Virus record (IMG/VR): IMGVR_UViG_2703718846_000005
Location: 1 to 17,376 of that record
DNA: 17,376 bases
Source: a virus
Lineage: Duplodnaviria > Heunggongvirae > Uroviricota > Caudoviricetes
Direction: 5' to 3' (one strand)
The position numbers and the translations under genes are program-made. Under the pieces are notes generated by a model. The model saw only the letters and a list, made by a program, of their open reading frames with translations, had not been told where the DNA came from and ran no database searches. Shown here piece by piece: positions 966-16,800 of this stretch (position 1 is its first letter; each line of letters starts with the position of its first letter).

Positions 966-966
966 C

Positions 967-2030: not shown

Positions 2031-2036
2031 CAAACA

Positions 2037-2650: not shown

Positions 2651-2717
2651 GTCGCATTATGAGGTTGTAATTTTAGCTACCATTAGACTATCCTAAGGAT
2701 CTCAAACAGATCTATTT

Positions 2718-2735
2718 TGCATCAAATTTGGTGCA
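2718..2735 (+). promoter_or_regulatory. Near-perfect 18-bp palindrome, candidate operator upstream of the Doc module
   Basis: TGCATCAAATTTGGTGCA (16/18 symmetric) about 40 bp upstream of ATG 2776; adjacent AGATCT-centred imperfect repeat. Confidence 0.4.
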
Positions 2736-2775
2736 TGGCTTTGCCAATAATCGGAAAACAAAAGGACTCATTAGT

Positions 2776-2955
2776 ATGAGCTGCCCACTCAAAAAACACA
2801 CGCGGTTGAGTATTCCGCCTCGCGATAAAAGCGTTGTGGCAGTCCCTCGCCCAGCGATTGATGAAAACTGCGCACATCGTGAACAAGTGAAAAATGCTTT
2901 TGATTTCGGTTTTTCTCGTTATGAGAAAGCCATGGAAGAACTTTCAAAAGTGTAA
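2776..2955 (+). CDS. Small protein (59 aa), candidate antitoxin partner of Doc
   Basis: ATG 2776 with AAGGA 10 nt upstream; stop 18 nt before doc start; position typical of an antitoxin, but sequence is not a recognisable Phd/YefM. Confidence 0.4.
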   Translation: MSCPLKKHTRLSIPPRDKSVVAVPRPAIDENCAHREQVKNAFDFGFSRYEKAMEELSKV

Positions 2956-2973
2956 TGATGGGTATTGTGCTCT

Positions 2974-3459
2974 ATGGCTGAGATTGTTGAAGGAGTGCAT
3001 TACCTTACGGTTGATGATCTTGTTGAAATCAATCGTTCCCTAATTGAATTACAGACGCCAGATGAGCCCGTTGGTGTTCTGAGTCCAGATAACTTAAGTT
3101 CTTCTCAGGCCCGTCCCAGCATGGTTCGATGGTATGAACAGACTAATGACATGTTTGTACTGGCATCGGTATTGATTGAAAGTCTGATTCAGAATCATCC
3201 GTTTGCTAATGCGAACAAACGAACAGCTATGATGGCTGGTTACGTCTTCTTGTTGTTGAATGGCTATGAGTTAACAGCACCAGGCGATGAAATCGTGGAA
3301 ATGGCAGAGGGACTGGCCTGCAAAACCTATACTCGAGAAGATCTCGAGAACTGGTTGTGTTATTGGTCTCGCGCGTATGACAGCCGGGAATTATGTAAAA
3401 CAGGCGCAACTATTGTTTTGTATGAAACTATCAAGCTTAAAATAGAACAGCAAAACTAA
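2974..3459 (+). CDS. doc: Doc (death-on-curing) family toxin, Fic fold
   Basis: Contains HPFANANKRTA, matching the Doc motif HxFx(D/N)(A/G)NKR; size about 160 aa; start could be TTG 2965 or ATG 2974. Confidence 0.8.
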   Translation: MAEIVEGVHYLTVDDLVEINRSLIELQTPDEPVGVLSPDNLSSSQARPSMVRWYEQTNDMFVLASVLIESLIQNHPFANANKRTAMMAGYVFLLLNGYELTAPGDEIVEMAEGLACKTYTREDLENWLCYWSRAYDSRELCKTGATIVLYETIKLKIEQQN

Positions 3460-3475
3460 AGGCGCTTCCAATGAA

Positions 3476-3500
3476 AACCCGCTTCGGCGGGTTTTGTTTT
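3476..3500 (+). terminator. Terminator after doc (copy 2 of 20-bp repeat)
   Basis: AAACCCGC-ttcg-GCGGGTTTTGTTTTTT; the 20 nt AACCCGCTTCGGCGGGTTTT are identical to 2629-2648. Confidence 0.7.
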
Positions 3501-3574
3501 TTCCGGGCATTCTGGTTTACAATCTGCACGCCAGCCTGAACAACTGGCACCTGCTGCGCCAGCAGAGAAAACAG

Positions 3575-3853
3575 ATGGCGCACAAGACCAAATTACACAA
3601 TTCTGATAATTCAGCCGCTTTTGCCAGCAGGCACGGGCGGCGTTCTCATGTATTCAAATCTGACTGGTACCAGCATCCCCCATGCACTGAAGAACAGGCC
3701 GAATGGCTGATTCAGTGTTACGGCAGGCGCGGATACGAGGTTAAGAAAGCCCTCAGCCTCGATTATCGTCACTGGATAATCTCTGTCAGGCTCCCTTATT
3801 CCGAACGCCCACCACACCCGTCCCGCACATTCCAGCAACGGATCTGGAGGTAA
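3575..3853 (+). CDS. Hypothetical protein (92 aa)
   Basis: ATG 3575 inside ORF 3494..3853; TACAAT -10-like element at 3515-3520; stop TAA overlaps the GGAGG SD of the next gene. Confidence 0.4.
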   Translation: MAHKTKLHNSDNSAAFASRHGRRSHVFKSDWYQHPPCTEEQAEWLIQCYGRRGYEVKKALSLDYRHWIISVRLPYSERPPHPSRTFQQRIWR

Positions 3854-3854
3854 C

Positions 3855-4904
3855 GTGCGGGTATTACTTCGACCTGTTCCGGTACCGGAACTCGGGCTGG
3901 TGGTCCTTAAGCCTGGTCGTGAATCCATGCAGGTATTTCATAACCCTCGAGTGCTGGTGGAGCCGGAACCGAAAAGCATGCGCGGTCTGCCGTCCGGAGT
4001 TGTTCCTGCTGTTCGCCAGCCGCTGGCGGAAGATAAATCATTACTGCCATTTTTCAGCGATGAGCGGGTGATTCGTGCTGCTGGCGGCGCTGGCGCACTG
4101 TCTGACTGGCTGTTGCGTCATGTCAAATCCTGCCAGTGGCCTCATGGTGACTATCATCACAGTGAAACCGTCATACATCGTTACGGTACCGGCGCAATGG
4201 TGTTGTGCTGGCACTGTGACAACCAGCTGCGTGACCAGACATCCGAATCACTCGGGCAGCTTGCTCAACAAAATCTGACAGCCTGGATGATTGACGTCAT
4301 ACGCCATGCAATGAATGGCACACAGGAGCGGGAATTATCGCTGGCTGAACTGTACTGCTGGGCTGCTGTAAATGATGTAGTGGATGCCATGACCGAAAAT
4401 ATGGCGCGTCGAATCCTGAAGCTTCCGGGTGAAAAAATCCACTCAGTATACCGCGAGAGTAACATCATACCGGGAGAACAGACAGCCACCAGCATACTGA
4501 AGCAGCGCACAAAAAATTTTGCGCCGTTGCCTCACGCCCACCAGCAACAGAACCCACCACAGGAAAAGACGGTTGTAAGTATCACAGTTGATCCGGAGTC
4601 ACCGGAATCATTCATGAAGCGGCCTAAACGTCGCCGCTGGGTGAATGAGAAATACACGCGCTGGGTAAAGACACAGCCGTGTACGTGTTGTGGTAAGCCA
4701 GCAGACGATCCCCATCACCTGATTGGTCACGGTCAGGGCGGAATGGGGACAAAAGCCCACGATATTTTTACGTTGCCGCTGTGTCGGGAACATCACAACG
4801 AACTTCATGCAGATCCGCAGGCGTTCGAAGAAAAGCATGGTTCTCAGGTTGATTTAATTTTTCGTTTTCTTGATCACGCCTTTGCAACTGGCGTACTCGG
4901 ATAA
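3855..4904 (+). CDS. DUF968-like prophage protein with C-terminal HNH-type Cys/His motif
   Basis: GTG 3855 with GGAGG SD; C-terminus CTCCGKPADDPHHLIGHGQGGMGTKAHDIFTLPLCREHHNELH; resembles Qin YdfU-type proteins (from memory). Confidence 0.65.
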   Translation: MRVLLRPVPVPELGLVVLKPGRESMQVFHNPRVLVEPEPKSMRGLPSGVVPAVRQPLAEDKSLLPFFSDERVIRAAGGAGALSDWLLRHVKSCQWPHGDYHHSETVIHRYGTGAMVLCWHCDNQLRDQTSESLGQLAQQNLTAWMIDVIRHAMNGTQERELSLAELYCWAAVNDVVDAMTENMARRILKLPGEKIHSVYRESNIIPGEQTATSILKQRTKNFAPLPHAHQQQNPPQEKTVVSITVDPESPESFMKRPKRRRWVNEKYTRWVKTQPCTCCGKPADDPHHLIGHGQGGMGTKAHDIFTLPLCREHHNELHADPQAFEEKHGSQVDLIFRFLDHAFATGVLG

Positions 4905-4916
4905 AAGAGGTTACTG

Positions 4917-5291
4917 ATGGGGATAGAATTTGTTTTGCCTTACCCGCCGACGGTAAACACCTACTGGCGACGCCGTGGCAGCACATATTTTATATCGGAA
5001 GCCGGTAAGCGTTATCGCCGTGATGTGGCACTTATAGTTCGCCAGCAGAGGCTGAAATTAAACCTGTCCGGAAGGCTGGCGATAACGGTTATTGCCGAGC
5101 CTCCGGATAAGCGCCGTCGTGATCTGGACAATATCCTGAAAGCGCCACTGGATGCACTGACACATGCGGGGTTGCTCATAGACGATGAGCAGTTTGATGA
5201 AATCAATATTGTGCGCGGTCAGCTCGTTCCTGGTGGGCGGCTGGGCGTGAAGATTTACGAAATAATGCATGACGGGCAGGTCCAAAAATGA
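4917..5291 (+). CDS. rusA: Holliday junction resolvase RusA
   Basis: ..RRRDLDNILKAPLDALTHAGLLIDDEQ.. matches the RusA catalytic region; AAGAGG SD; stop overlaps Q start (ATGA). Confidence 0.9.
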   Translation: MGIEFVLPYPPTVNTYWRRRGSTYFISEAGKRYRRDVALIVRQQRLKLNLSGRLAITVIAEPPDKRRRDLDNILKAPLDALTHAGLLIDDEQFDEINIVRGQLVPGGRLGVKIYEIMHDGQVQK

Positions 5292-6109
5292 AACTGGAAG
5301 ATTTACCGAAATACTATTCCCCAAAATCGCCAGGCCTGACTGATGTATCCGCCTCGACGTCAAAAGATGCACTGAGTATCACTGATGTGATGGCTGCGCA
5401 GGGGATGACACAGAACCGGGCTGAGATGGGATTTTCTGCGTTCCTGGGGAAAATGGGTATTAGTATGAATGACAGGGTGCGGGCAACAGAATTACTGACA
5501 GATTATGCATTAAGTCAGTGCGATCGTGTGGCGGCGTTAAGGAAACTTCCGGCAGAAATAAAACCGGCAGTGATGCGTATTATGGCTTCGTATGCTTTTG
5601 AGGATTATGCCCGCAGCGCAGCGAGTAAAAAGCAGTGCCCTTGTTGCCATGGGGAAAAATTTATTGAAAGCGAAGTTTTTACAAACAAGGTTCAGTATCC
5701 GGATGGTAAGCCGCCAGTATGGGCAAAGTGTACAAAAGGCGTGTATCCGTCTTACTGGGAAGAATGGAAAAAAATCCGGGAGGTGGTGAAAGTTTCCTGT
5801 CCTGAATGTAAAGGGAAGGGGGAGATCTCCACTGCCTGTAAAGACTGCCGTGGGCGTGGTGTTGCCATTCATCGTGAAGAGTCAGAAAAACGGGGTATGC
5901 CTGTTATCAGGGGCTGCCGGCGTTGTGGCGGTCGTGGCTATGAAAGACTGCCATCAACGGAGGCATTTAATGCCATATGCAAAGTGACGAGTGCTATCAC
6001 GCTTGATACATGGAAAAAATCAGTGAAACGCTTTTACGATACGTTGGTGGTTCGGTTTGACATTGAAGAGGCATGGGCGGAGCGGCAGTTAAAGATGGTA
6101 ACGCGATAG
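5288..6109 (+). CDS. Late-gene antiterminator Q (Phage_antitermQ-like) with four CxxCxGxG zinc-finger repeats
   Basis: N-terminus MKLEDLPKYYSPKSP typical of Q antiterminators of E. coli prophages; sits immediately upstream of the late promoter. Confidence 0.8.
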   Translation: MKLEDLPKYYSPKSPGLTDVSASTSKDALSITDVMAAQGMTQNRAEMGFSAFLGKMGISMNDRVRATELLTDYALSQCDRVAALRKLPAEIKPAVMRIMASYAFEDYARSAASKKQCPCCHGEKFIESEVFTNKVQYPDGKPPVWAKCTKGVYPSYWEEWKKIREVVKVSCPECKGKGEISTACKDCRGRGVAIHREESEKRGMPVIRGCRRCGGRGYERLPSTEAFNAICKVTSAITLDTWKKSVKRFYDTLVVRFDIEEAWAERQLKMVTR

Positions 6110-6112
6110 TGT

Positions 6113-6143
6113 TGTTGATTTTTCCCGAATCTGTGGTAAATTC
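6113..6143 (+). promoter_or_regulatory. pR'-like late promoter (extended -10), presumed qut region
   Basis: TTGATT (6116-6121), 16-nt spacer, TGgTAAATT extended -10 (6134-6143), immediately after Q stop; small hairpin CGCCC-taacgat-GGGCG at 6144-6160 just downstream. Confidence 0.4.
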
Positions 6144-6190
6144 GCCCTAACGATGGGCGTTTTGTGCCTGACGTTAGAAGAATTTTTACA

Positions 6191-6217
6191 ACCCGCCACC
6201 GAGCGGGTTTTTTATTG
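6191..6217 (+). terminator. tR'-like terminator of short late leader RNA
   Basis: CCCGC-caccgag-CGGG followed by TTTTTT, about 50 nt downstream of the predicted late start. Confidence 0.65.
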
Positions 6218-6336
6218 CCCGAAAAACGGTACAGAACATTAAACGCGCTGGTGGTTACGAATACCGGTCTTTCAGCTTGTATTTTTGTAAATCGATATAT
6301 ACTTATCTTGTGACCAGTAATGTCAGGGCAATTGAT

Positions 6337-7080
6337 ATGAATGAAGCCTGTTCTGTTGTTTTTGTTCATTCCCCGTTTGTTGTGCTCTTTGAAGGAAAAG
6401 AGCTCTCTCTTGAAAGTGGTAGTGCACTTCTTGTCAGGGGGGGAGCTGGATCGTTATTGCCCTTTTCGGAATGTTTTCGGCGAATAAGTCTCAGTGAATC
6501 GACAATTAGCCGTTACCTGTTGTGTGGAGACGAAAAACAGGATGTAGTTTTAGTCCGGCAAATACCACGATATCTTTGCGTGAGTTTTCCCAAGGCAGAA
6601 TTGATGGGCATCCTGATTGATTATCTTTGTGAGGAAAAGATTCATACGGACAATTTAGCGGAAATGCTTTCCTTTTCGTGTCTGGCGTTTTTCTCATCAG
6701 AGAAAATGTTTTCGTCGTTTCTGACCGCGTGTATTAGCAATATTAGTGACAGGCTTAGTGCATTGTTTCGTACGGACATTGCAGCAAACTGGACTCTGAG
6801 AGATGTGTCTTCGCGGTTATGTATCAGTGAAAGTTTGTTAAAAAAAAGACTGAAAGAAGAAGGCACCTGTTTCAGTGAGTTGTTGCTTACAGAGAGAATG
6901 AGAATGGCAGCAATGCTGTTGAATCAATCTCGTTGCGCCATCAACAGAATCGCTGCTCAGTGCGGCTATAATTTTACATCTTATTTTATCAGCGTATTCA
7001 GGAGTTATTTTGGTGTTACACCGGCAGGTTACAGGATGGCTGCATTCAATGAGATGAGTTTAAGTGTTACTCAAGAATAA
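6337..7080 (+). CDS. AraC/XylS-family transcriptional regulator (AppY/EnvY/GadX-like), AT-rich moron
   Basis: C-terminal dual HTH (..LLKKRLKEEGTCFSELLLTERMRMAAMLL..IAAQCGYNFTSYFISVFRSYFGVTPAGYR); N-terminus MNEACSVVFV resembles AppY-type regulators; visibly AT-richer than flanks. Confidence 0.85.
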   Translation: MNEACSVVFVHSPFVVLFEGKELSLESGSALLVRGGAGSLLPFSECFRRISLSESTISRYLLCGDEKQDVVLVRQIPRYLCVSFPKAELMGILIDYLCEEKIHTDNLAEMLSFSCLAFFSSEKMFSSFLTACISNISDRLSALFRTDIAANWTLRDVSSRLCISESLLKKRLKEEGTCFSELLLTERMRMAAMLLNQSRCAINRIAAQCGYNFTSYFISVFRSYFGVTPAGYRMAAFNEMSLSVTQE

Positions 7081-7102
7081 TTGAATTTTGCACTCATTGA
7101 AA

Positions 7103-7131
7103 AAGGCTCGCTCCGGCGGGCCTTTTTCATA
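7103..7131 (+). terminator. Terminator after the AraC-family gene
   Basis: GGCTCGC-tccg-GCGGGCC hairpin (one mismatch) followed by TTTTTC. Confidence 0.5.
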
Positions 7132-7264
7132 TCTGCGCCACGCCCGGCGCACATCAAAAAACCACAGAGCCTTTCAGGGGGGAGCTTACGGGATGGTCAG
7201 TGTGACTTTCTCTGTGGGCTGCTCATCCCGGGGCGAGGCTCACCCACTAAAAGGAAAAGTCACG

Positions 7265-7690
7265 ATGTTTGGTATTTTCAAAAAGAAAACCCGTAAGGCT
7301 ATTACTGAAGTGAAGAAAATGGAGAACCGCGACGCAGTGGAGGCGACCGTCTGGGGCGCGTATTCCATTGCATACGCTGACGACACCTGTGACGCGAAAG
7401 AAATTGCGGTACTGGAGAAAACCATTGCAGCACTTCCTGCCTTTGCGCCGTTCTCCGGTGAGATTGCACAAATGAGTGCAAATATCCGCGCCCGTTATGA
7501 AGCATCACCGCGTTCTGCCAATGCTGAAGCTCTTCGTCAGCTGGCTGATGTTGCAGGTACTGATGATGCAGTTAATGTGCTGTGCCTGTGTCTCGATATT
7601 GCTGACCAGGACGGTATTGGTCCGGATGAAGAAGCACAGCTCAAGAAAATTGCGCAGGCGCTGCAGTTGCCACTGGAGCAGTATCTGTGA
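7265..7690 (+). CDS. TerB-like (tellurite-resistance TerB family) protein
   Basis: ATG 7265 with AAAGGA SD; two TerB-like helical repeats (AYSIAYADDTCDAKEIAVLEKTI and VLCLCLDIADQDGIGPDEEAQLKKIAQAL) resembling TerB as I remember it. Confidence 0.65.
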   Translation: MFGIFKKKTRKAITEVKKMENRDAVEATVWGAYSIAYADDTCDAKEIAVLEKTIAALPAFAPFSGEIAQMSANIRARYEASPRSANAEALRQLADVAGTDDAVNVLCLCLDIADQDGIGPDEEAQLKKIAQALQLPLEQYL

Positions 7691-7845
7691 AAACTGCGCG
7701 CCTTGTGCTGGCTGCCATCCTGTTGTTTCTGGTAGTGGCGGTTGATTTCACCGGGCGCCTGATGTCGGTGCTGGCTGATGGCGTGCTGGTGGTGATGGTA
7801 GTGGTCGTGCTCCGGCCTTTATTCCGGAACAAAAACAACAGCTGA
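7687..7845 (+). CDS. Small membrane peptide (52 aa) translationally coupled to the TerB-like gene
   Basis: GTG overlaps TerB-like stop (GTGA); product VKTARLVLAAILLFLVVAVDFTGRLMSVLADGVLVVMVVVVLRPLFRNKNNS is predicted TM; terminator follows. Confidence 0.4.
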   Translation: MKTARLVLAAILLFLVVAVDFTGRLMSVLADGVLVVMVVVVLRPLFRNKNNS

Positions 7846-7852
7846 TTATTTG

Positions 7853-7882
7853 AGCGGGCATTGAAAGCCCGCTGCATTTTTA
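7853..7882 (+). terminator. Terminator of the TerB-like unit, overlapping the stop of the convergent minus-strand gene
   Basis: AGCGGGC-attgaa-GCCCGCT hairpin followed by TTTTTA; the minus-strand side lacks a U-run. Confidence 0.55.
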
Positions 7883-8560
7883 TTGCTGCTGTTCCTTAAT
7901 GCGTTCCGGTAGCACAAATGCCACTTCAAGGAACAGGCGGAGAAACGCCACAAACTCTTTTGCCTGTTCACTACTGGCCTCGAGTTCGTGCACAGCCTCA
8001 TTGCCTTCCATACGGATTCGGTGAGCCCAGTTTCTCATTGATTCCGTCAGTATGCCGTCCTGCCGTGCCAGTTCAATGCGTGACAGCAGATTGCCTTTTT
8101 CGTACCCCAGGGCACGGAGGGCAACCTCGAGGACGCTACGGCAGCCAACAATGATACGCGGGGCGGTTCTGCCGGACCGAACATCCTCCTGCAACTCAGT
8201 GAAGACTGCGCGAATTTTTTCGGGATAGTGGGGGGAGTCATCGGGCAGCCTGAGTTCAGGATAGATTTTGATGCTTCCCTCAAGTGGAGCATTCAGCACC
8301 CAGGCTTTGTTGTTGATGGCTTTTTTCATGTCCACCAGTTCACTGACTGAACATTCGAATGCGATCATTAATGGGTTGTTACATTCTGTGCAAAAGTCTG
8401 TTGAGTATGCTTTTGCTGATGTTATTTCAGAGGTGCGCGGCTGTTGCACGTAAAGCTTGTTTTCTGTAGCCGGGCGCCTGCTGTGGTACTGGGTGACCTC
8501 ATTCAGAGAAATATGAACCTGATGAAGGCAGTACGGGCATCTAATTTTCAGGGAGTACAT
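7880..8560 (-). CDS. Zn-ribbon plus DUF4145-domain protein (226 aa), candidate defence/abortive-infection-type protein
   Basis: N-terminal CPYC...CTEC zinc ribbon; C-terminus ..RSVLEVALRALG..LLSRIELARQDGILTESMRNWAHRIRMEGNEAVHE..AKEFVAFLRLFLEVAF matches the DUF4145 pattern from memory; start at minus ATG 8560-8558 with AAGAGG SD. Confidence 0.65.
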   Translation of the reverse strand: MYSLKIRCPYCLHQVHISLNEVTQYHSRRPATENKLYVQQPRTSEITSAKAYSTDFCTECNNPLMIAFECSVSELVDMKKAINNKAWVLNAPLEGSIKIYPELRLPDDSPHYPEKIRAVFTELQEDVRSGRTAPRIIVGCRSVLEVALRALGYEKGNLLSRIELARQDGILTESMRNWAHRIRMEGNEAVHELEASSEQAKEFVAFLRLFLEVAFVLPERIKEQQQ

Positions 8561-8767
8561 ATGACCTCTTCGACAGAAGTGATAACTGAATTTGAAAATT
8601 GCATAGCAGATTCTGCCATTGATTCTGTAGCAGCGATAGAACGAAGGTTTGCTGCTGCTCAGACCCGGTATGGTCATGATGCAGCCGTCAAGGGGCTGGC
8701 AATGGCGTTTGTTATTGCGGAGAACCGCCGTCGCTTTATTGAAGCGCAAATGACACTAAAGCAATAA
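8561..8767 (+). CDS. Hypothetical small helical protein (68 aa)
   Basis: ATG 8561 with GGGAG SD 5 nt upstream; tandem terminators follow; start codon abuts the divergent DUF4145 gene start (CATATG). Confidence 0.45.
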   Translation: MTSSTEVITEFENCIADSAIDSVAAIERRFAAAQTRYGHDAAVKGLAMAFVIAENRRRFIEAQMTLKQ

Positions 8768-8780
8768 ATAGCACCACACA

Positions 8781-8841
8781 AAAGGCATCTGTGGGTGCCT
8801 TTGACTGGGTGTTTTTTTACGGGCCGACAGAGGCCCTTTTT
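8781..8841 (+). terminator. Tandem rho-independent terminators
   Basis: AAAGGCA-8 nt loop-TGCCTTT then U-run; GGGCC-gacaga-GGCCC then TTTTTT. Confidence 0.6.
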
Positions 8842-8860
8842 TATTTACAGGAGAAAAAGT

Positions 8861-9250
8861 ATGTCTGAACCCTTATCCGGTTCCGGCACGGCTGCGGCGC
8901 TCGGCGGGGCGACGGTATTCGGGCTGTTTACCGGAACGGATTTCGGGATTGTGTTTGGTGCATTCGCAGGGGCGCTGTTTGTGGCCACGATACCACAGAA
9001 GATTTCTGTCTGGCGTGTGGCAGCGCATTTTCTGGTGTCGTTCATTGTTGGCGTGCTGGGGGCGGATGTGATGGCGTCTTACCTGGTTGAAAAACTGAAT
9101 CTCCACAGCACATCTCTCGACGCACTTTGCGCGGTACTGGTATCGGTGGTGTCGGTGAAGATTCTCTCATTCATCCACCAGCAGGATATCGCATCGCTGG
9201 TATCCGGGCTGTTCTCCCGTCTGCGGGGTGGAGGCGGTAATGTTAAGTAA
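8861..9250 (+). CDS. Putative holin (3 predicted TM segments, 129 aa)
   Basis: AGGAG SD before ATG 8861; three hydrophobic segments, charged C-terminus; first gene of lysis cluster. Confidence 0.6.
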   Translation: MSEPLSGSGTAAALGGATVFGLFTGTDFGIVFGAFAGALFVATIPQKISVWRVAAHFLVSFIVGVLGADVMASYLVEKLNLHSTSLDALCAVLVSVVSVKILSFIHQQDIASLVSGLFSRLRGGGGNVK

Positions 9251-9515
9251 CCTTCCCGGATTACTGAATGTGGTGTTAAGCACGGTTATCGTGCTGACGC
9301 TCTTTTTTTATCGTCGCCGTGATTCCAGACATAAACCGCTGATGTCATGGCTGGCCTGGCTACTGATGCTGCTTTATGCCTTTGCACCACTCAGCTATCT
9401 GTGCGGTCGCCCGTTAGCGGCGAACTGGCTGGCGGTGGGGCTTAATCTGCTGTTCTGCGTGCTGGTGATACGTGCACGCGGGAACGTTTCAAAAATCCTT
9501 TCATTCCGGAGGTGA
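9240..9515 (+). CDS. Second holin/antiholin-like membrane protein (91 aa)
   Basis: ATG 9240 overlaps holin stop; three hydrophobic segments; basic C-terminus. Confidence 0.5.
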   Translation: MLSNLPGLLNVVLSTVIVLTLFFYRRRDSRHKPLMSWLAWLLMLLYAFAPLSYLCGRPLAANWLAVGLNLLFCVLVIRARGNVSKILSFRR

Positions 9516-9517
9516 GC

Positions 9518-9895
9518 ATGTCGGGTAAATTCAGATTCAGTCGTCGCAGTGAAAAAAATCTGGAGGGCGTCAAACCACAGCTGGTTGCTGTTGTTCGCCG
9601 TGCGCTGGAGCTGACGGAGGTTGATTTCGGTATTACGGAAGGTCTGCGCAGTAAGTATCGCCAGAAACAGCTGGTTGCAGAAGGTAAGAGCCAGACCATG
9701 AACAGCCGCCACCTGACCGGTGATGCTGTGGATGTTGTGGCTTATGTTGGCAGCCAGGTGTCATGGGACTGGCCTCTGTACGAGAAAATCGCACAGGCAT
9801 TTAAGCAAGCTGCCGCAGAGCTTGGAACTGCCATCGAATGGGGCGGTGACTGGCGGACGCTTAAAGACGGCCCACATTTTCAATTGAAGCGATAG
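9518..9895 (+). CDS. Endolysin, peptidase M15 family (L-alanyl-D-glutamate peptidase / VanY-like)
   Basis: SRHLTGDAVDV (SxHxxGxAxD zinc-binding motif) and ..WGGDWRTLKDGPHFQL; GGAGG SD before ATG 9518. Confidence 0.8.
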   Translation: MSGKFRFSRRSEKNLEGVKPQLVAVVRRALELTEVDFGITEGLRSKYRQKQLVAEGKSQTMNSRHLTGDAVDVVAYVGSQVSWDWPLYEKIAQAFKQAAAELGTAIEWGGDWRTLKDGPHFQLKR

Positions 9896-9912
9896 CTTGC
9901 AAAACATACAGG

Positions 9913-9934
9913 GCCGCCATGAGCGGCTTTTTTA
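9913..9934 (+). terminator. Terminator after endolysin
   Basis: GCCGC-catga-GCGGC followed by TTTTTT. Confidence 0.65.
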
Positions 9935-9965
9935 TTGCTCAAAAAACGAAAGAACGGAGGTACGT

Positions 9966-10247
9966 ATGTACGCACTGAAAAAAATCACGGTAACTAAAGA
10001 TGGTCGTCAGGTTGAAGAAGTGCATGTTCTGGGGAATATGTATCGTCTGGAGTTCTATCCGCGTGACACTCATCTTGCAGCAAAAATTGAGTATTGCCTG
10101 GGCGGGGATATTCCATGTATTCCGGTAGAAAAAGAGGATGAGGCTTACATTACCACGCTGACCGGAGACACGGTGCGTTGTATCTGTCGCGGTGACAGTA
10201 AAGCCAGGAATGAAATAGCCAGATGCCGCACCCAAGGCAGTAAATAA
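9966..10247 (+). CDS. Hypothetical Cys-containing protein (93 aa)
   Basis: ACGGAGG SD before ATG 9966; bounded by terminators on both sides. Confidence 0.5.
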   Translation: MYALKKITVTKDGRQVEEVHVLGNMYRLEFYPRDTHLAAKIEYCLGGDIPCIPVEKEDEAYITTLTGDTVRCICRGDSKARNEIARCRTQGSK

Positions 10248-10254
10248 AAAACAA

Positions 10255-10287
10255 AACCCCGGCTGCTGGAACAGTCCGGGGTTTTTA
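10255..10287 (+). terminator. Strong rho-independent terminator
   Basis: CCCCGG-13 nt loop-CCGGGG followed by TTTTT. Confidence 0.85.
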
Positions 10288-10377
10288 GTTTTCACGTCAA
10301 AGAGGAAATTGTGAGTAGTGAGTACGGAGAAAATCCTCGTGGGAAAGTATAAAAGATTCTTTTTGAGGTTGTCCATT

Positions 10378-10491
10378 ATGAAAGGTATTGAAGTGGAAAC
10401 TCCCGCGAGCCTTGATTTGACAAGGGCTGCGGCCTTTGCAATTCGCCTTGTGGCGGTCGCTGTTCTGATTTGGGCTGTGCGTTGGTGGTGA
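10378..10491 (+). CDS. Small TM peptide (37 aa)
   Basis: GAGG SD before ATG 10378; MKGIEVETPASLDLTRAAAFAIRLVAVAVLIWAVRWW; stop 1 nt before the lipoprotein start. Confidence 0.35.
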   Translation: MKGIEVETPASLDLTRAAAFAIRLVAVAVLIWAVRWW

Positions 10492-10492
10492 C

Positions 10493-10675
10493 ATGAGCCG
10501 AAAACACTGGACACACAGAATGCCTCGAACGGCGGTGAAATGGGCGCTGATAGCGATACTGGTGCCTTTTTTCCTGGTGGGATGTGTCAGCCTGGATAAA
10601 GCGCGCCAGCTTTTTGATACAGCTTCTCAGGTCTGTGAAATTGTCGACGGTGTTCGGCAGTGTCTGCAGAACTGA
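10493..10675 (+). CDS. Small predicted lipoprotein (60 aa)
   Basis: Basic n-region, hydrophobic core ALIAILVPFFLVG, lipobox LVGC; short mature part with 3 Cys; not proline-rich like lambda Rz1. Confidence 0.5.
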   Translation: MSRKHWTHRMPRTAVKWALIAILVPFFLVGCVSLDKARQLFDTASQVCEIVDGVRQCLQN

Positions 10676-10846
10676 TCGCCTGTAAGAGCAGAATATTTTG
10701 CTGAAAAATGAAGGATGCGCCGGCGTCCGGAAAGCATGAAATTCTGTGTTTGTGGCTACTCAATTAAATAAATTCTTTCTGTCGCCGCGAATACTCAAAT
10801 GTTGATCAGCGCCCGGTGCGGCGACGAGCTTCGATATCAGGAGACG

Positions 10847-11146
10847 ATGATGGAAAAAACAGAAAACAAACCGATTGTAATTGGTGCTGATGCTGCTCCG
10901 TTTAAGTTTGAGTTGTCTCAACTGGTGGAGATGCGCATCAGTGATGAATGGGGGGAGGTTAAAGCCCGCGCGCAGTATGCGGATGGCGAAAACCAGTACT
11001 TGATCCACTACAAAGCAGCTGATGGTCGCGCCACGACGGAGTGGTTTGGTGAGTCAATGCTGGAAGCAACGGAAGATGATCGCCATCCTGGCTGTCCGGT
11101 ATTTGCTGGTATGAAATTGCCGGAAGGTGCGGTTGTTACAGAGTAA
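10847..11146 (+). CDS. Hypothetical acidic protein (about 99 aa)
   Basis: AGGAGA SD (10838-10844) before ATG 10847/10850; in ORF 10799..11146. Confidence 0.5.
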   Translation: MMEKTENKPIVIGADAAPFKFELSQLVEMRISDEWGEVKARAQYADGENQYLIHYKAADGRATTEWFGESMLEATEDDRHPGCPVFAGMKLPEGAVVTE

Positions 11147-11351
11147 CAGACATTACAGCAGCCCTTCAGCGAGGGGCTGCGATAATGTGAGAAATAAAAA
11201 ACCGGTCACAGGGAACAGCCACACAGAACCGGCCGGCGAAGACCGCCAATATCACCCGAGCATCGGTACAACATACTTATGACAATAGACGGTATTGATG
11301 TAAATGCAATGTTATGCATCGACGAAAATAAAAAACCGGCAGGGGAAATCC

Positions 11352-11492
11352 ATGGAAGATTTGCCGGTGGCGAAAGAGGGCCATGTTTTTAACCTTAGTC
11401 GCAGAGTTACGGAGTGCAACTACGAATGCTGCCGGTATATGGCTGAATGGCGTTTCAATGATGTGCATCATGTTATGCGCAAACGAAAGTGA
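11352..11492 (+). CDS. Small Cys-rich ORF (46 aa), doubtful
   Basis: Internal ATG of ORF 11304..11492; weak SD. Confidence 0.2.
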   Translation: MEDLPVAKEGHVFNLSRRVTECNYECCRYMAEWRFNDVHHVMRKRK

Positions 11493-11504
11493 TAATCGCT
11501 CCCG

Positions 11505-11690
11505 TTTTCACGGGTCCTTTCCGGGAGTTGAAACACCGGGGGTCGTAGGACGCGCAAAAACGCGCTATTTATGAAAATTTTCAGGGAACCATGTCCGGTT
11601 TCACTACTGGTTAACTATATGAAAAATATAAAAACAAGCTTTTTGTGAACCGGACATGTACAAAAAACGAACATGCAAACCGGACATGAG
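11505..11690 (+). promoter_or_regulatory. cos site region (cosQ-like, cosN region, cosB with IHF-like A/T tract and three R-like repeats)
   Basis: TTTTCACGGGTCCTTTCCGG and GCTATTTATGAAAATTTTC match the lambda right/left end sequences as I remember them; 10-bp motif ACCGGACATG occurs at 11649-11658 and 11679-11688 and inverted at 11590-11599; lies directly upstream of the Nu1-like gene. Confidence 0.6.
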
Positions 11691-11732
11691 CGGTTTTCTG
11701 ATTGTGAGGTGAGAGTTTTTGCGAGGTGAGTC

Positions 11733-12242
11733 GTGGCTACGCAGACTGAAGTTGCCAGGCATTTGAGTCTGACCGATCGCCAGCTTCGCAGATTGCAGAA
11801 ATTGCCGGGTGCCCCGGTCTCGAATAAACGGGGGCATCATGACTTGGATGCCTGGCGTGATTTTTACATATCGTATCTGAGGAGAAGTAAAAATGATGTG
11901 TCTGATGGTGATAGCGAAGAAGACTATGAAGAAAAATTACTTATCGCCAGATGGAAATTGACTGAAGAACAGGCAATAGCACAGCAATTAAAAAATCAGG
12001 TAACTGAAGGCAGACTTATTGATTCAGGGTTCTGCGTTTTCGCCCTCAGCAAACTGGCGATGGCATTGTCCAGTACGCTTGATTCCATTCCTTTATCCAT
12101 GCAGCGACAGTTCCCGGATTTAACCCCGCGTCATATTGATTATCTGAAAACCCTTATCGCAAAGGGAGCGAATCAGTGTGCGCGGGCAGGGGATAAATTG
12201 CCGGAGTTACTCGATGAATATATCCGAACAACAGTTGAATAA
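11733..12242 (+). CDS. Terminase small subunit (lambda Nu1-like)
   Basis: GTG start with GAGGTGAG SD; ..FCVFALSKLAMALSSTLDSIPLSMQRQFPDLTPRHIDYLK.. closely parallels lambda gpNu1; overlaps the large-subunit start as in lambda. Confidence 0.9.
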   Translation: MATQTEVARHLSLTDRQLRRLQKLPGAPVSNKRGHHDLDAWRDFYISYLRRSKNDVSDGDSEEDYEEKLLIARWKLTEEQAIAQQLKNQVTEGRLIDSGFCVFALSKLAMALSSTLDSIPLSMQRQFPDLTPRHIDYLKTLIAKGANQCARAGDKLPELLDEYIRTTVE

Positions 12243-14574
12243 TATGATGATCGCCGTCACAACCGCATTACAGCCACTAATAAGGGCATTGCCGGTCACG
12301 CCGGTTGAATGGGCTGATCAAAATTATTATCTGCCTAAAGAATCGTCATACGGTGAAGGAGAGTGGAAAACCCTGCCGTTTCAGGTCGCCATTATGAACA
12401 GCATGGGGCACGACAGGATCCGCACTGTTAATCTGATTAAATCGGCGCGTGTGGGTTACACCAAAATGCTGCTGGGCGTGGTCGGGTATTTTATTGAGCA
12501 TAAATCCCGTAACAGCCTGCTCTTCCAGCCGACAGATTCCGCAGCTGAAGATTTTATGAAAGCGCATGTGGAAGCAACGCTCCGGGATGTCCCCAGCCTT
12601 AAAGCGTTATCGCCATGGCTGGGCAGAAAACATCGGGACAACACACTCACCCTGAAGCGTTTTTCCTCCGGCGTGGGGTTCTGGTGCCTGGGGGGGGCCG
12701 CTGCTAAAAACTACCGTGAAAAATCTGTGGATGTGGTCTGCTATGACGAACTCTCCTCGTTTGAACCGGATGTGGAAAAAGAAGGCTCGCCGACGCTGCT
12801 TGGCGATAAACGTATCGAAGGCTCGGTATGGCCTAAATCCATACGCGGCTCAACGCCAAAAATTAAAGGCTCCTGCCAGATTGAGAAAGCGGCGAATGAA
12901 TCTGCGCATTTCATGCGGTTTTATGTCCCTTGCCCTCATTGCGGGGAGGCCCAGTATCTGAAGTTTGGCGATGATGCGACGCCGTTTGGCCTGAAATGGG
13001 AGAAGGGTAAACCCGAAACGGTGTATTACCTGTGTGAACATAATGGCTGTGTGATCCGCCAGTCGGAACTTGACCAGACCGACGGATGCTGGATTTGTGA
13101 CAATACCGGGATGTGGACGCGTGACGGCCTGACATTTTACAGTGCCGGTGATGAGGAAATCCCGCCACCGCGCTCAATTTCGTACCACATCTGGACGGCA
13201 TACAGCCCGTTCACCACCTGGGTACAGATTGTTTATGACTGGCTCGATGCACTGAAGGATCCGAATGGCGTCAAGACGTTCATTAACACCACGCTCGGGG
13301 AGCCCTATGAAGAGGCCGTGGCAGAAAAACTGAGCTTTGAGTTGTTGCTGGAAAAAGTCTGCCACTATGGCGCGCAGGTTCCCCTGCGGGTGGTTTACCT
13401 GACCGCAGGGATAGACTCCCAGAAAGATCGCTATGAAATTTATGTTTGGGGCTGGGCTCCCGGCGAAGAAGCCTTTCTGATTGACAAGCAAATTATCATG
13501 GGGCGACCGGAGGACGAGGACACCCTTAAACGTGTTGATGCGGTGATCCGGAAAAAATACCGCCATGCTGACGGTACTGAAATTTCCATTTCCCGCGTCT
13601 GCTGGGATACCGGTGGTATCGACCAGGACATTGTGTATCAGCGATCCAGAAAACACGGCACTTTTTTTGTGCTTCCCATAAAAGGGGCATCGGTGTATGG
13701 CAAGCCGGTGATCACCATGCCCAAAAAGCGCAACCAGCGTGGTGTGTTTTTGTGTGAGGTGGGCTCCGATACCGTCAAGGAAATGCTGTACGCCCGTTTT
13801 GCCCTGCCGGTGGTTTCTGCCAGTGAAGCAGCTCCGTATACCTTCCGTTTTCCGGATAACCCGGACATTTTTTCGGAAGAAGAGGCGCGTCAAATCGTAG
13901 CGGAAGAACTGGTGGAAAAGGTGGTTAACGGCAGGGTGAAACTGCTGTGGGATAAAAAAGGGCGACGCAACGAAGCCCTCGACTGCCTGGTATATGCTTA
14001 TGCCGCCCTGCGCGTTTCGGTACAGCGGTGGCAACTGGACCTTGAAGCACTGGCGATGGCACGAAAAGATGAGCAGGATGAGGATGATATGAGCATGGAA
14101 GAGATCGCGGCTGCACTGAGTGGAGGATATTCCAGTGCCAGGGCATCCGCCAATGAGTCGTGGCGGTATTTTATGGGAAAACGAAAATTTGTGGCCAGTC
14201 GCCTGGCGTCACAGATGTTTGCCTGCTGGCTGGAGGAAGCCCTTATTCGTGGTGTGATCCGTCCGCCGAAATCCCGTTTCTCATTCTGGGAGGCTCGTTC
14301 CGGGTGGTGCCGTGCCGAGTGGATTGGTGCCGGTCGTATGGCGATTGATGGCCTTAAGGAAGTGCAGGAAGCGGTGATGCGCATTGAAGGCGGCCTGAGT
14401 ACATACGAGAAAGAGCTGGCCCTGATGGGGGATGACTATCAGGAGATTTTCCGCCAGCAGCTACGGGAAACTCAGGAGCGACAGGCTGCCGGTCTTCCGC
14501 GTCCGGTCTGGATAAAGGACGCGTTTCAACAGCAGATCCGACAGACAACGGGAGAAAAAGGCGATGCGCTGTAA
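12214..14574 (+). CDS. Terminase large subunit (lambda gpA-like) fused in frame to the C-terminal part of the portal protein (gpB-like)
   Basis: N-terminus MNISEQQLNN..VEWADQNYYLPKES..GDKRIEGSVWPKSIRGSTPK.. follows lambda gpA for about 637 aa; from about 14128 the frame continues as ..YSSARASANESWRYFMGKRKFVASR..MAIDGLKEVQEAVMRIEGGLSTYEKE.., which matches the lambda portal C-terminus (from memory). Confidence 0.85.
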   Translation: MNISEQQLNNMMIAVTTALQPLIRALPVTPVEWADQNYYLPKESSYGEGEWKTLPFQVAIMNSMGHDRIRTVNLIKSARVGYTKMLLGVVGYFIEHKSRNSLLFQPTDSAAEDFMKAHVEATLRDVPSLKALSPWLGRKHRDNTLTLKRFSSGVGFWCLGGAAAKNYREKSVDVVCYDELSSFEPDVEKEGSPTLLGDKRIEGSVWPKSIRGSTPKIKGSCQIEKAANESAHFMRFYVPCPHCGEAQYLKFGDDATPFGLKWEKGKPETVYYLCEHNGCVIRQSELDQTDGCWICDNTGMWTRDGLTFYSAGDEEIPPPRSISYHIWTAYSPFTTWVQIVYDWLDALKDPNGVKTFINTTLGEPYEEAVAEKLSFELLLEKVCHYGAQVPLRVVYLTAGIDSQKDRYEIYVWGWAPGEEAFLIDKQIIMGRPEDEDTLKRVDAVIRKKYRHADGTEISISRVCWDTGGIDQDIVYQRSRKHGTFFVLPIKGASVYGKPVITMPKKRNQRGVFLCEVGSDTVKEMLYARFALPVVSASEAAPYTFRFPDNPDIFSEEEARQIVAEELVEKVVNGRVKLLWDKKGRRNEALDCLVYAYAALRVSVQRWQLDLEALAMARKDEQDEDDMSMEEIAAALSGGYSSARASANESWRYFMGKRKFVASRLASQMFACWLEEALIRGVIRPPKSRFSFWEARSGWCRAEWIGAGRMAIDGLKEVQEAVMRIEGGLSTYEKELALMGDDYQEIFRQQLRETQERQAAGLPRPVWIKDAFQQQIRQTTGEKGDAL

Positions 14575-15523
14575 TTTATCACATATTGCCGCGATGGCAT
14601 TTAATGAGCCGCTTTTACTGGAACCCGCCTATGCGCGGGTTTTCTTTTGCGCACTGGGTAAGGAGATGGGGGCGGGCAGCCTTGCCGTTCCGCAGCAGGC
14701 CGTTCAGCTTGATGCCGATGGTATGCAGCTGGCGGTTACCGATTATATGACTGGTGGTCCGCGTCCGGTAAAGAGTTACCAGGTGAAAAATGGTATTGCC
14801 ATTCTGCCGGTGAGCGGCACGTTGGTACATAAAATGGGTACCCTGCGGCCATATTCCGGTATGACCGGTTATGACGGTCTGACTGCCCGTCTTAAGTCAG
14901 CGGTGAACGACCCGGATGTACGCGGCATTTTACTGGATATCGACAGTCCGGGTGGTCAGGCTGCCGGGGCGTTTGACTGTGCTGACATGATTTACCGTCT
15001 GCGGGAACAGAAGCCCGTGTGGGCGCTGTGTAATGACATGGCCTGTTCAGCCGCCATGTTGCTGGCGGCGGCCTGTACGCGTCGGCTGGTCACGCAGACG
15101 GCAAAAATTGGTTCGATTGGTGTGATGATGGCGCACACCAGTTACGAGAAACAACTGGCACAGGAAGGCGTGGATATCACGCTGATTTACTCCGGGCAGC
15201 ACAAGGTTGACGGCAACAGTATTCAGGCGTTGCCGACAGGTGTGCGTGCGGATTTTCAGCGCCGTATTGATGAGGCCCGCCGGATGTTTGTCGACAAGGT
15301 GGCGCTTTATACGGGGCTGAGTTCAGAGGCGGTGATGAATACCGAGGCTGCCGTTTATGACGGTCAGGCAGGCATTGATACAGGCCTGGCTGATCAACTG
15401 ATTAATGCTGCAGATGCCGTTGATGTACCATATTATTCTGAAAGCCAGACAGAATACATCCGCAGTGGTCATGAGAACGGTGGCGACAGTGGTGACAGGT
15501 CCGGCAGGAGAATATGCTTTTGA
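14564..15523 (+). CDS. Head maturation protease/scaffold gpC-like (S49 peptidase family), C-terminally truncated at a deletion junction
   Basis: ..HIAAMAFNEPLLLEPAYARVFFCAL..ILPVSGTLV..SGMTGYDGL..GVMMAHTSYEKQLAQEGVDITLIYSGQHKVDGN.. parallels lambda gpC to about aa 290, then diverges into 30 unrelated codons. Confidence 0.75.
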   Translation: MRCNLSHIAAMAFNEPLLLEPAYARVFFCALGKEMGAGSLAVPQQAVQLDADGMQLAVTDYMTGGPRPVKSYQVKNGIAILPVSGTLVHKMGTLRPYSGMTGYDGLTARLKSAVNDPDVRGILLDIDSPGGQAAGAFDCADMIYRLREQKPVWALCNDMACSAAMLLAAACTRRLVTQTAKIGSIGVMMAHTSYEKQLAQEGVDITLIYSGQHKVDGNSIQALPTGVRADFQRRIDEARRMFVDKVALYTGLSSEAVMNTEAAVYDGQAGIDTGLADQLINAADAVDVPYYSESQTEYIRSGHENGGDSGDRSGRRICF

Positions 15524-16793
15524 AGCTCAGACCGGAAAATATGACGTTTATCTTCGGTCGTGTATTGAAAGGGAATACTGTGTCGGTGATATTTCGGTTT
15601 ACCACGATTCAACGCCCGGCACGCTGAATGATTTTCTGACAGCCATCGATGAAGGTGACCTCAAACCCGACGTGGTGAAACGTTTTGAGGAAATGGTGGC
15701 GCAGGCGCAGCAGAGCGCGGAAACGGCAACAGAAAGCGAACGACAGGCAGGGCAACATGCAGACGCTGCCGCCCGGGTAAAAGAAGATGTAAAAAAACTG
15801 GTGGAAGGTGTTCAGCAGAACGCCGACGCGGTTGCGGAGGGTAAACAACAGGCCGAAACTCTGGTCTCACAGGTTGAGGATACCGCCGCAGAGGTCAGGC
15901 AGGATGCTGAAGCCGCGAAAAAGGCCGCATCTGATGCAGAGCATGTCAGGGAGGATATTGACACTGCGTTATCTGCGACACTGAAAACGGCGAATCGCCT
16001 GTCAGAGCTGGCTGATGAAGGTGAAGAGGCTCAGCAGGAATCCCGTGATAATCTTGGACTGAAAAGCGCAGCCACAATGACGCCACAGAGCGACATTCGT
16101 GACCGGACTGAAGGCCGTCTGGCGACACCTGGCGCATTTGGTTTTGGGCATATTTTTTTGCCCGCAGAGCGTATCCGTTTTAACACAGAGGATGATTTTC
16201 TGTCCTGGGTAAGGAATGCGACGCCGGGTGAATATTTTGTTGAGGGTGACAGTAAAATCATATCCGGAGGTGTGTTGTTTAACGGGATGGTCCGCATCCG
16301 GTGGGTTGAGGCACGCAATAATCCACCGGAGCCGCGATATACAGCAAAGGCCATTATTTTCTACGGTATTAATGGCGATGTTTATTACAACCGCTACTGG
16401 ACAACAGGTAATGGTTATCTGACTGGCTGGGAAAATCTGAAGATGACCTCACAGGACATTATCTCTCTTCTGTCCGGTATTGCTCCCGGTACCACGGACG
16501 GCTGGTACGGTGCAGGCAGTCTTGTACTGGCGGCTTATAACGGTAAGGGAGACGCAGACACCGACCGCCGGATAAAACGCGGTTACAGCTATCCGGGGTC
16601 ACGCCTGAGCGCGGTTGAATTTATGTGTCACGGCACGACCGGTAGCGGGGTTGGATATAACGGCAGCGTTTCCGTATATGTGCGGGGTTCTGGTGGTGGT
16701 ATGCCGGGGTCATATCGGGCACTGTCAGGTGACGGGCTCGGGTCTGCCGGGTCAGCCAGTGTCATGATTGGTTTGTTCATACGTATTGCGTAG
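15426..16793 (+). pseudogene. Side tail fibre protein (Stf-like), lacking native N-terminus and start; joined out of frame to gpC remnant
   Basis: ..ILKARQNTSAVV..DISVYHDSTPGTLNDFLTAIDEGD.. matches lambda Stf from about residue 20; Ala/Glu/Gln-rich coiled-coil then C-terminal domain; only fortuitous upstream ATGs (15405) lie in gpC-derived sequence. Confidence 0.65.
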
Positions 16794-16800
16794 GTGTTTT

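Follow-up and report, generated by a model that had tools for sequence, protein, structure and literature searches.

A small lipoprotein that alternates with Rz/Rz1 in phiP27-type lysis cassettes, and a separate transmembrane peptide module beside it

The 17,376-nucleotide stretch of tailed-phage DNA analyzed here (IMG/VR record IMGVR_UViG_2703718846_000005, positions 1 to 17,376; hereafter, the window) carries a late lysis cassette of the phiP27 type that lacks Rz/Rz1, the genes of the canonical spanins, and ends in a gene for a 60-amino-acid (aa) lipoprotein precursor, which we denote LP60. In order, the cassette comprises genes for two holins with three transmembrane domains (TMDs) each, a gene for an M15 endolysin, a terminator, an inserted 93-aa open reading frame (ORF), a second terminator, a gene for a 50-aa transmembrane peptide (TM50), and LP60 (Table 1). 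Over region 8780-10800, the window shares 99.4% identity with a prophage of Escherichia coli strain C5 and about 89% with the Shiga toxin (Stx)-converting phages phiSTEC1575-Stx2k and phiP27. Because genes for a Q antiterminator, a DNA methylase and a terminase are found in the surroundings, the region can be placed in a Q-dependent late operon. An earlier note on this DNA had described two holins with three TMDs, an M15 endolysin and a following terminator, in a lysis cassette without recognizable spanins, and both the components and the absence of spanins have been borne out.

A lysis cassette ending in a small lipoprotein gene

A profile search among the window proteins gave no match to Rz (PF03245) or Rz1 (PF06085), and canonical spanins were not found elsewhere in the cassette. 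A six-frame scan of the window for lipoboxes returned LP60 only, so that an Rz1-type ORF embedded out of frame in another gene, a search for which had been proposed in the earlier note, was rejected as a candidate: LP60 is the sole lipobox ORF in any frame. The window also contains no ORF resembling an inner-membrane spanin (i-spanin), that is, one with a single N-terminal TMD. When applied to the whole genome of phiP27, the six-frame scan yielded LP60 together with two unrelated candidates in the early region, namely the annotated 275-aa lipoprotein L05 and an adjacent 62-aa ORF, and neither the window nor the late region of phiP27 holds a further lipoprotein or i-spanin-like ORF.

The LP60 gene begins 1 nt after the TM50 stop codon. 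As the earlier note had it, the product is a 60-aa lipoprotein with an LVGC lipobox and three cysteines: a long basic n-region leads to the lipobox L28-V29-G30-C31, and the mature part of 30 residues contains Cys31, Cys48 and Cys57. The latter two cysteines are invariant, and at position +2 all homologues have V, A, S, T or G, never Asp. The signal peptide is the sole hydrophobic segment of the protein; the mature part is slightly acidic (net charge −1) and moderately amphipathic (muH 0.4-0.5), and AlphaFold2 renders the protein as one long helix at low confidence (pLDDT 65). We take Met1 to be the start because Met10 is not conserved among the remote homologues. Both LP60 and the transmembrane peptide are conserved across Escherichia, Salmonella, Citrobacter and Cronobacter. 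The dN/dS ratio of LP60 is 0.27 overall and 0.22 in the mature part, as expected under purifying selection, and the conservation and selection seen in both small genes indicate that they are more than chance ORFs.

LP60, TM50 (in readings of 37, 50 and 57 aa), the 93-aa ORF and a 98-aa ORF were searched against Pfam, NCBIfam, PADLOC and PHROGs; none has a match in the first three databases, and the PHROGs matches are all to families of 'unknown function'. For LP60, the absence of matches in Pfam and NCBIfam extends to E<=1 and includes Bor/Iss, the Entericidin model and the colicin lysis proteins (Lysis_col), so that homology to the entericidin-like or Bor-like envelope factors considered in the earlier note is not detectable there. 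One LP60 homologue gave a non-significant match to phrog_1275, 'Rz-like spanin' (E 0.084). An exhaustive HMMER profile search of 1.84 billion representatives recovered only 23 relatives of LP60, all of them small enterobacterial lipoproteins that keep the pattern lipobox-C...(E/D)K(A)R...A(A/S)xVC...(R/K)xC, and no bridge from these to Rz1 or other families. A sequence search of the PDB with the LP60 profile produced chance matches only and no relative of solved structure. In the literature, searches for the accessions, the peptide strings and the term 'orphan o-spanin' found no match.

A terminator-like hairpin (11 pairs followed by a T-run) lies within the part of the LP60 gene that encodes the signal peptide in two surveyed loci (L029 and L073, positions 6050-6075 in each); it is weaker in the window, where the equivalent positions are approximately 10542-10567. 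This hairpin may act as an internal attenuator or may simply result from the codons of a hydrophobic segment.

LP60 and Rz/Rz1 in one slot

To place LP60 in its genomic contexts, we surveyed about 155 non-redundant loci from IMG/VR and genome assemblies. LP60 is the last gene in about 130 non-redundant cassettes that together include three holin types and two endolysin types. LP60 or members of its remote subfamily follow M15 or GH108 endolysins behind PF16931 and PF05449 holins, and they are also found behind lambda-S-type PF05106 holins (in Lelliottia and in one IMG/VR contig) and behind strongly diverged holin pairs. The linkage is with lysis itself and not with any single module. The alignment of remote LP60 homologues was too diverse for a scan of the genome collection, and a narrower alignment led to a single locus.

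The slot occupied by LP60 is taken by Rz/Rz1 in closely related cassettes. Three loci (L207-209) encode PF16931 and PF05449 holins, a GH108 endolysin that is 80% identical to its counterparts in LP60 cassettes, and a TM50 that is 92% identical, followed by Rz with an embedded Rz1 in the place of LP60. When the DNA is aligned, the hairpin, the leader and TM50 are homologous throughout, and the homology ends precisely at the start codon of the next gene. Intact LP60 and intact Rz/Rz1 were never found together in the surveyed loci; in phage GER2 and locus L184, both of which carry Rz/Rz1, LP60 persists only as a frameshifted relic that retains the final TM50 codons. This alternation, combined with the decay of LP60, is the pattern expected of analogous, interchangeable modules. 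The isolated phages phiP27 and phiSTEC1575-Stx2k have LP60 and no Rz. Among cassettes retrieved through the holin alone, a set unbiased with respect to LP60, LP60 is present in 12 of 15 loci, in 10 of them intact, with occurrences in Salmonella, Cronobacter and Citrobacter and not in Raoultella. Given that it occupies the exact slot of Rz/Rz1 in sister cassettes, LP60 is the best candidate for a spanin equivalent in these phages. The suggestion of an unusual minimal spanin equivalent in the earlier note is thus supported as far as the lipoprotein is concerned, the same gene having been listed as an outer-membrane spanin (o-spanin; see below), and is not supported as regards a pair with the transmembrane peptide.

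Several further observations were made in the surveyed loci. In GER2 (L024), a gene for an ais-like lipopolysaccharide core heptose(II)-phosphate phosphatase (3323-3937, minus strand) lies between Rz/Rz1 and the LP60 relic (3960-4170); at its start, this relic retains the TM50 end (cgtggtgatATG), the trace of a module swap. In a Raoultella planticola prophage (L198, 5406-5786), the holin pair and a GH108 endolysin are followed by a soluble ORF of 116-126 aa with no Pfam match, which represents either another alternative or a cassette without a gene for the outer-membrane step. The phage recorded as 'Actinobacillus phage vB_Apl-pPE4' (L025, PP818812.1) has about 88% DNA identity with the cassette and a 93% identical LP60, and the assignment of Actinobacillus pleuropneumoniae as its host looks doubtful. 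In both vB_Apl-pPE4 and GER2, the LP60 gene lacks annotation.

TM50, its hairpin and the other features of the cassette

LP60 and TM50 are not an obligate pair. TM50 followed by LP60 was found in 78 non-redundant loci, and 58 non-redundant P27-type cassettes contain LP60 without TM50. In 37 of these 58, the LP60 gene starts 14-15 nt after the M15 stop codon and has a Shine-Dalgarno sequence of its own, whereas in one Salmonella locus (L186) its start overlaps the stop of the GH108 endolysin (ATGA); altogether, LP60 directly follows or overlaps the endolysin gene, without a transmembrane peptide, in 38 non-redundant loci. No promoter-like site was found upstream of LP60 in these minimal cassettes. 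In phiP27 itself, LP60 is present, TM50 is absent and a reverse-strand gene stands in the place of TM50. Conversely, lambdoid prophages of enterohemorrhagic E. coli (EHEC) of serogroups O157, O111 and O26 carry an 86% identical copy of TM50 after the signal-arrest-release (SAR) lysozyme R and before Rz/Rz1, with the same TGA-N-ATG junction to the next gene as in the window, and hundreds of EHEC genomes combine TM50 with full Rz/Rz1. Among 5426 complete E. coli genomes, TM50 is present in 867 (about 16%), including O157:H7 strains such as ATCC 43894 in which it lies between R and Rz; LP60 is present in 352 (about 6%) and tracks the P27-type holin pair (395 genomes). Accordingly, TM50 is a separate, portable and optional module, and the functional pair envisaged in the earlier note, whether of i-spanin and o-spanin or of toxin and lipoprotein partner, is not supported in view of the 58 loci and phiP27 with LP60 only.

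A second small membrane peptide, denoted TMpep2 (44 aa, N-terminal TMD, phrog_4906), is encoded directly 5' of LP60 in some loci (for example, L073 5862-5996 and L193 5458-5592). TMpep2 is unrelated to TM50, and some loci also carry a 60-aa relative of TM50 (phrog_1115). It was detected in 19 GH108-type loci, with its stop 4 nt before LP60, and would contribute only about 11 periplasmic residues.

The start of TM50 was assessed by aligning the family over leaders of four diverged kinds (P27-like, lambdoid, L073-type and L207-type). At 10339 every allele has a start codon, be it GTG (16 alleles), ATG (1) or TTG (1), with GGAG or GGGAGG, a conserved Shine-Dalgarno sequence, in front of it; in the most diverged relative, ATG stands at this position behind a canonical AAGGAG. 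Thus, the most likely start is GTG 10339, giving 50 aa, rather than ATG 10378, although the internal Met, which corresponds to the 37-aa form of the RefSeq annotation, may be used as well. The transmembrane peptide of the earlier note accordingly exists, most likely with a length of 50 rather than 37 aa. The two in-frame starts resemble the dual-start motifs of holins and antiholins. A 57-aa reading from GTG 10318 was rejected: a 5-nt indel in the lambdoid copies and other leader variants break its frame. The same variants led us to reject the 13-codon leader ORF as a conserved unit. This short upstream ORF, which starts at GTG 10311 and not at GTG 10314 as previously proposed, has 4 codons in the commonest variant and 8 in the lambdoid copies and is missing in the L073 and L207 types; because its length varies and two clades lack it, it does not represent a conserved peptide.

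The N-terminus of TM50 (MGKYKRFFLRL) is basic; an acidic linker leads to the only TMD (residues 31-47), behind which there is no more than RWW. Downstream of Met14, 26 of the 40 sites that vary between clades are at third codon positions, and this bias, together with a dN/dS of about 0.1, marks TM50 as a real gene. Codons 2-13 are nearly invariant in nucleotides: synonymous divergence (pS) is 0.11 there versus 0.30 downstream, which implies additional constraint on these codons. The approximately 40 nt of near-invariant sequence at the 5' end (10340-10378) could hold an antisense promoter, an RNA structure occluding the internal start, or a recombination linker. Upstream, hairpin T2 is bidirectional in form because it has an A-tract on one side and a T-tract on the other; its minus strand folds as a terminator and is followed by UUUUGUUUU. 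T2 accompanies TM50 in all contexts (P27-type, lambdoid, L073-type and L207-type), with the stem kept by compensatory changes. Because TM50 is always in a late lysis operon, directly 5' of the gene for the outer-membrane step, a role related to lysis suggests itself, and TM50 could be a lysis accessory or regulator.

Table 1. Features of the lysis cassette (positions in the window)
Feature	Position	Strand	Evidence
Holin-like protein 1 (129 aa, Phage_holin_8)	8861..9250	+	PF16931 E 3.7e-22; phrog_198 E 1.5e-41; three hydrophobic segments
Holin-like protein 2 (91 aa, 3-TM, Phage_holin_3_7)	9240..9515	+	PF05449 '3TM holin' E 6.4e-21; phrog_217 E 4e-36; three hydrophobic segments
M15 endolysin (125 aa)	9518..9895	+	PF13539 E 2.8e-12; phrog_465 E 1e-74
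Intrinsic terminator T1, 3' of the endolysin gene	9910..9938	+	8-bp stem with 5 GC pairs, then TTTTATT
93-aa ORF, soluble, Cys-rich, between the two terminators	9966..10247	+	phrog_33497 E 2.8e-54; no Pfam match
Hairpin T2 (10257-10281, with A-tract/T-tract flanks)	10250..10287		Sequence reading and terminator scan
Short upstream ORF (13 codons)	10311..10352	+	Preceded by AAGAGGAAA
TM50 (50-aa peptide)	10339..10491	+	Full-length phrog_4493 match, E 1.1e-23
Sigma-70 promoter-like site, TGGACA-18-TATACT	10346..10375	-	Within the TM50 5' end, aimed at T2
LP60 (60-aa lipoprotein precursor)	10493..10675	+	phrog_7528 E 1.3e-36

Both genes upstream of the endolysin have the attributes of holins, that is, PF16931 and PF05449 matches above the cut-offs, three TMDs each and a position 5' of the endolysin gene; the start of the second overlaps the end of the first. 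In the M15 endolysin, no hydrophobic segment, signal sequence or SAR segment was found. Deletion of a homologous 130-aa holin in Stx2e prophages has been reported to abolish fluoroquinolone-induced toxin release (2025; PMC12571312), and hence the cassette is active in vivo. The 93-aa ORF is optional, being present in only about 22 of the roughly 155 non-redundant loci, and behaves like an inserted moron.

Just 5' of the cassette, a minus-strand ORF (7880-8749) has a counterpart in strain C5 that is annotated as a DUF4145 protein, and further upstream in this strain there are genes of the TerB family and DUF3927. Accessory genes thus lie between Q and the holins, which is the position of the Stx genes in phiP27. 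Elsewhere in the window, a hok/sok type I toxin-antitoxin locus was identified at 2236-2410 on the plus strand (Rfam sok, 110 bits versus a gathering score of 59), and an ORF overlapping the sok match (2348-2560) encodes a Hok-like peptide at its end (MKQQKAMLIALIVICLTVIVTALVTRKDLCEVRIRTGQTEVAVFTAYEPEE).

Roles considered for LP60 and TM50

The reading that we favor, with moderate confidence, is that LP60 serves as a partner-less outer-membrane lipoprotein for the last lysis step and functionally replaces Rz/Rz1, TM50 not being its partner. Under this scenario, Q-antiterminated late transcription would read through both terminators, the two holins would permeabilize the inner membrane, and the cytoplasmic M15 L-Ala-D-Glu peptidase would then degrade the murein. 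LP60 would be made late alongside the other lysis proteins, exported via Sec and lipidated at Cys31; because Asp is absent from position +2, sorting by the Lol system to the inner leaflet of the outer membrane is proposed. With the murein gone, LP60 might destabilize the outer membrane via its 29-residue amphipathic helix, possibly in the form of oligomers linked by disulfides through Cys48 and Cys57. TM50, in turn, would be a portable inner-membrane peptide module, composed of hairpin, leader and gene, that can precede any gene for the outer-membrane step. Because LP60 cannot reach the inner membrane, it would be spanin-like in outcome and not in mechanism. We infer this localization, timing and membrane-disrupting activity from the position of the gene, its conservation and its mutual exclusivity with Rz/Rz1, to which can be added the features that LP60 has in common with o-spanins: the lipobox, the lack of Asp at +2, periplasmic cysteines that do not vary and a mature part under purifying selection.

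Several considerations weigh against this interpretation. The established fusion mechanism of spanins is impossible for LP60 because a mature lipoprotein of 30 residues cannot bridge the periplasm. The protein is not cationic and is only moderately amphipathic, and its helical model is of low confidence. A Raoultella cassette of the P27 type has neither LP60 nor Rz, and most of the surveyed loci were retrieved via LP60 or TM50, with only small unbiased sets. Furthermore, Bor and other small lipoprotein morons are likewise encoded immediately behind lysis genes, and many phages lyse their hosts in the laboratory without spanins, so that the cassette may simply lack the function.

The main rival explanation for LP60 follows from the last two points, namely that it is a moron-encoded lipoprotein serving the lysogen, for example, in superinfection exclusion, receptor masking or serum resistance in the manner of Bor, Cor or T5 Llp, and takes no part in lysis, in which case these phages would have no gene for outer-membrane disruption. 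Lipoprotein morons of the outer membrane are common just 3' of the lysis genes in lambdoid phages, lambda bor among them, and in the window LP60 is located behind two terminators; moreover, about 15% of phages are reported to lack a spanin (bioRxiv 10.1101/515445). Such a moron would not be expected to be translationally coupled to, or to overlap, the endolysin gene without a promoter-like site, as LP60 does in the minimal cassettes, to hold a constant position across three holin and two endolysin types, or to exclude Rz/Rz1 and decay where these are present. In addition, LP60 shows no similarity to Bor/Iss or other named families. On balance, we regard the moron explanation as unlikely.

The second alternative is that LP60 is the o-spanin half of a very short two-component spanin. 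The spanin-like nature of the lipoprotein is not new: on bioinformatic grounds only, Kongari et al. (2018; PMC6139136) placed phiP27 among the 'separated' two-component spanins, in singleton families, with an o-spanin at 20706-20861 and an i-spanin at 20348-20542 and a combined total of 62 periplasmic residues, the shortest of their two-component set. Their o-spanin is the same gene as LP60, read from an internal Met. The i-spanin is a 64-aa ORF with a TTG start; of about 200 loci, only 3 contain it, and phiP27 itself accounts for two of them. It lacks a PHROG match and is antisense to a 90-aa ORF with a full-length match to phrog_36812. For these reasons, it cannot be the general partner of LP60, and it looks spurious. 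In phiP27, the RefSeq coding sequence L32 is in the wrong reading frame (L002 4557-4712 versus 4600-4788; phiP27 20630-20785 versus 20673-20861) and is overlapped by the conserved LP60 ORF in another frame.

The remaining potential partners are the small membrane peptides. TM50 ends 1 nt before LP60, and TMpep2 has the N-terminal TMD expected of an i-spanin and stops 4 nt before LP60. However, no partner is conserved: in the 38 loci with LP60 right after the endolysin gene, nothing lies between the two genes and nothing suitable lies downstream. With its C-terminal TMD, TM50 would have no more than 3 periplasmic residues, which is not the topology of an i-spanin, and it also occurs alongside complete Rz/Rz1, so that the spanin pair of the earlier note is not supported; the periplasmic part of TMpep2 would be limited to approximately 11 residues. 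A two-component arrangement is thus improbable. Compared with lambda Rz1-type o-spanins (PMC6139136), LP60 is likewise an outer-membrane-type lipoprotein with conserved periplasmic cysteines, encoded distally in the cassette in the Rz/Rz1 slot, but it has no conserved i-spanin, its 30-residue mature part is helical and not proline-rich, and it bears no similarity to PF06085. In terms of the traits of two-component spanins, the lipobox without Asp at +2 and the position distal to the endolysin are present, whereas an i-spanin gene, a length sufficient to bridge the periplasm and membership in the Rz/Rz1 families are lacking. Unimolecular spanins, such as T1 gp11, share with LP60 the single gene at the end of the cassette and the N-terminal lipoprotein signal, but LP60 lacks the C-terminal TMD and the periplasmic domain (about 100 aa) that gp11-type proteins possess.

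A different possibility concerns TM50, namely that its module resembles a type I toxin-antitoxin system, with a membrane-toxic peptide controlled by an antisense RNA of about 85 nt that is transcribed from the site at 10375-10346 to the hairpin, LP60 being unrelated. Such an RNA, covering the Shine-Dalgarno sequence and the start codon of TM50, is conceivable because the near-invariant codons hold a minus-strand promoter-like site aimed at the hairpin. The small, hydrophobic peptide with a single TMD would fit, as would the preservation of TGGACA-18-TATACT in three diverged clades, the depressed synonymous divergence of codons 2-13, and the constant presence of the hairpin, with its A- and T-tracts, compensatory changes and minus-strand terminator fold. 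However, promoter-like matches occur once per region, within the expectation from shuffled sequences, and the two hexamers also encode the conserved K-Y-K and L-S-I residues of TM50. At the TM50 leader, Rfam, searched with gathering and permissive thresholds, revealed no known small RNA or leader, only weak, hairpin-driven matches below threshold; no separate promoter for TM50 was found; and folding added only the terminator, given that the plus strand of the leader has no significant structure (z −1.7, +0.3 and +0.4) and the stability of the minus-strand fold stems mostly from the terminator. TM50 shares with Hok and other type I toxins the size, the single TMD, the structured leader and possibly an antisense promoter and bidirectional terminator, but differs in having no family match, in the C-terminal location of the TMD and in its invariable placement in the late lysis operon, directly 5' of Rz or LP60. 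The toxin explanation is speculative and appears doubtful.

Finally, it is most improbable that LP60, in a variant of the reading we favor, acts indirectly like a colicin lysis protein or entericidin B, for example, through activation of outer-membrane phospholipase A: the lysis context and the size class are shared (precursors of 45-60 aa, mature parts of about 30 aa, within the range of roughly 20-35 aa for such lipoproteins, the known ones of which compromise the envelope), but homology is not detectable, LP60 is helical with conserved cysteines whereas the release proteins are rich in Gly and Ser and have no extra cysteines, and the known representatives are encoded on plasmids or chromosomes, not in phage lysis cassettes.

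For phages that lack canonical spanins, to our knowledge only one alternative means of opening the outer membrane, the disruptin, has been described. As is suggested here for LP60, the disruptin gp28 of phiKT (bioRxiv 10.1101/515445) has been proposed to act on the outer membrane as a small single protein in a phage without spanins, but it is described as cationic and similar to antimicrobial peptides, whereas LP60 is a lipobox lipoprotein with a net charge of −1. LP60 is a concrete candidate for this step: it is tiny, swaps with Rz/Rz1 and occurs in roughly 6% of the complete E. coli genomes as well as in Stx2e- and Stx2k-converting phages, in which lysis determines toxin release. What is new here is the finding of LP60 without a conserved partner, its alternation with Rz/Rz1 and the recognition of TM50 as an independent, portable module; TM50 itself is a conserved, unstudied small membrane protein of about 16% of complete E. 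coli genomes.

Should LP60 act alone, lysis could be completed without proteins that physically span the periplasm, and the published classification of phiP27 among two-component spanins would need correction. Going further, and only tentatively, we consider it possible that LP60 alone suffices for the outer-membrane step of lysis and would constitute a further class of disruptors beside two-component spanins, unimolecular spanins and disruptins. Such a class would be interchangeable with Rz/Rz1 through modular recombination and would control the release of phage and of Stx2e and Stx2k from hundreds of E. coli lineages, with the TM50 module perhaps acting as a regulator of this step or as an antisense-controlled membrane toxin.

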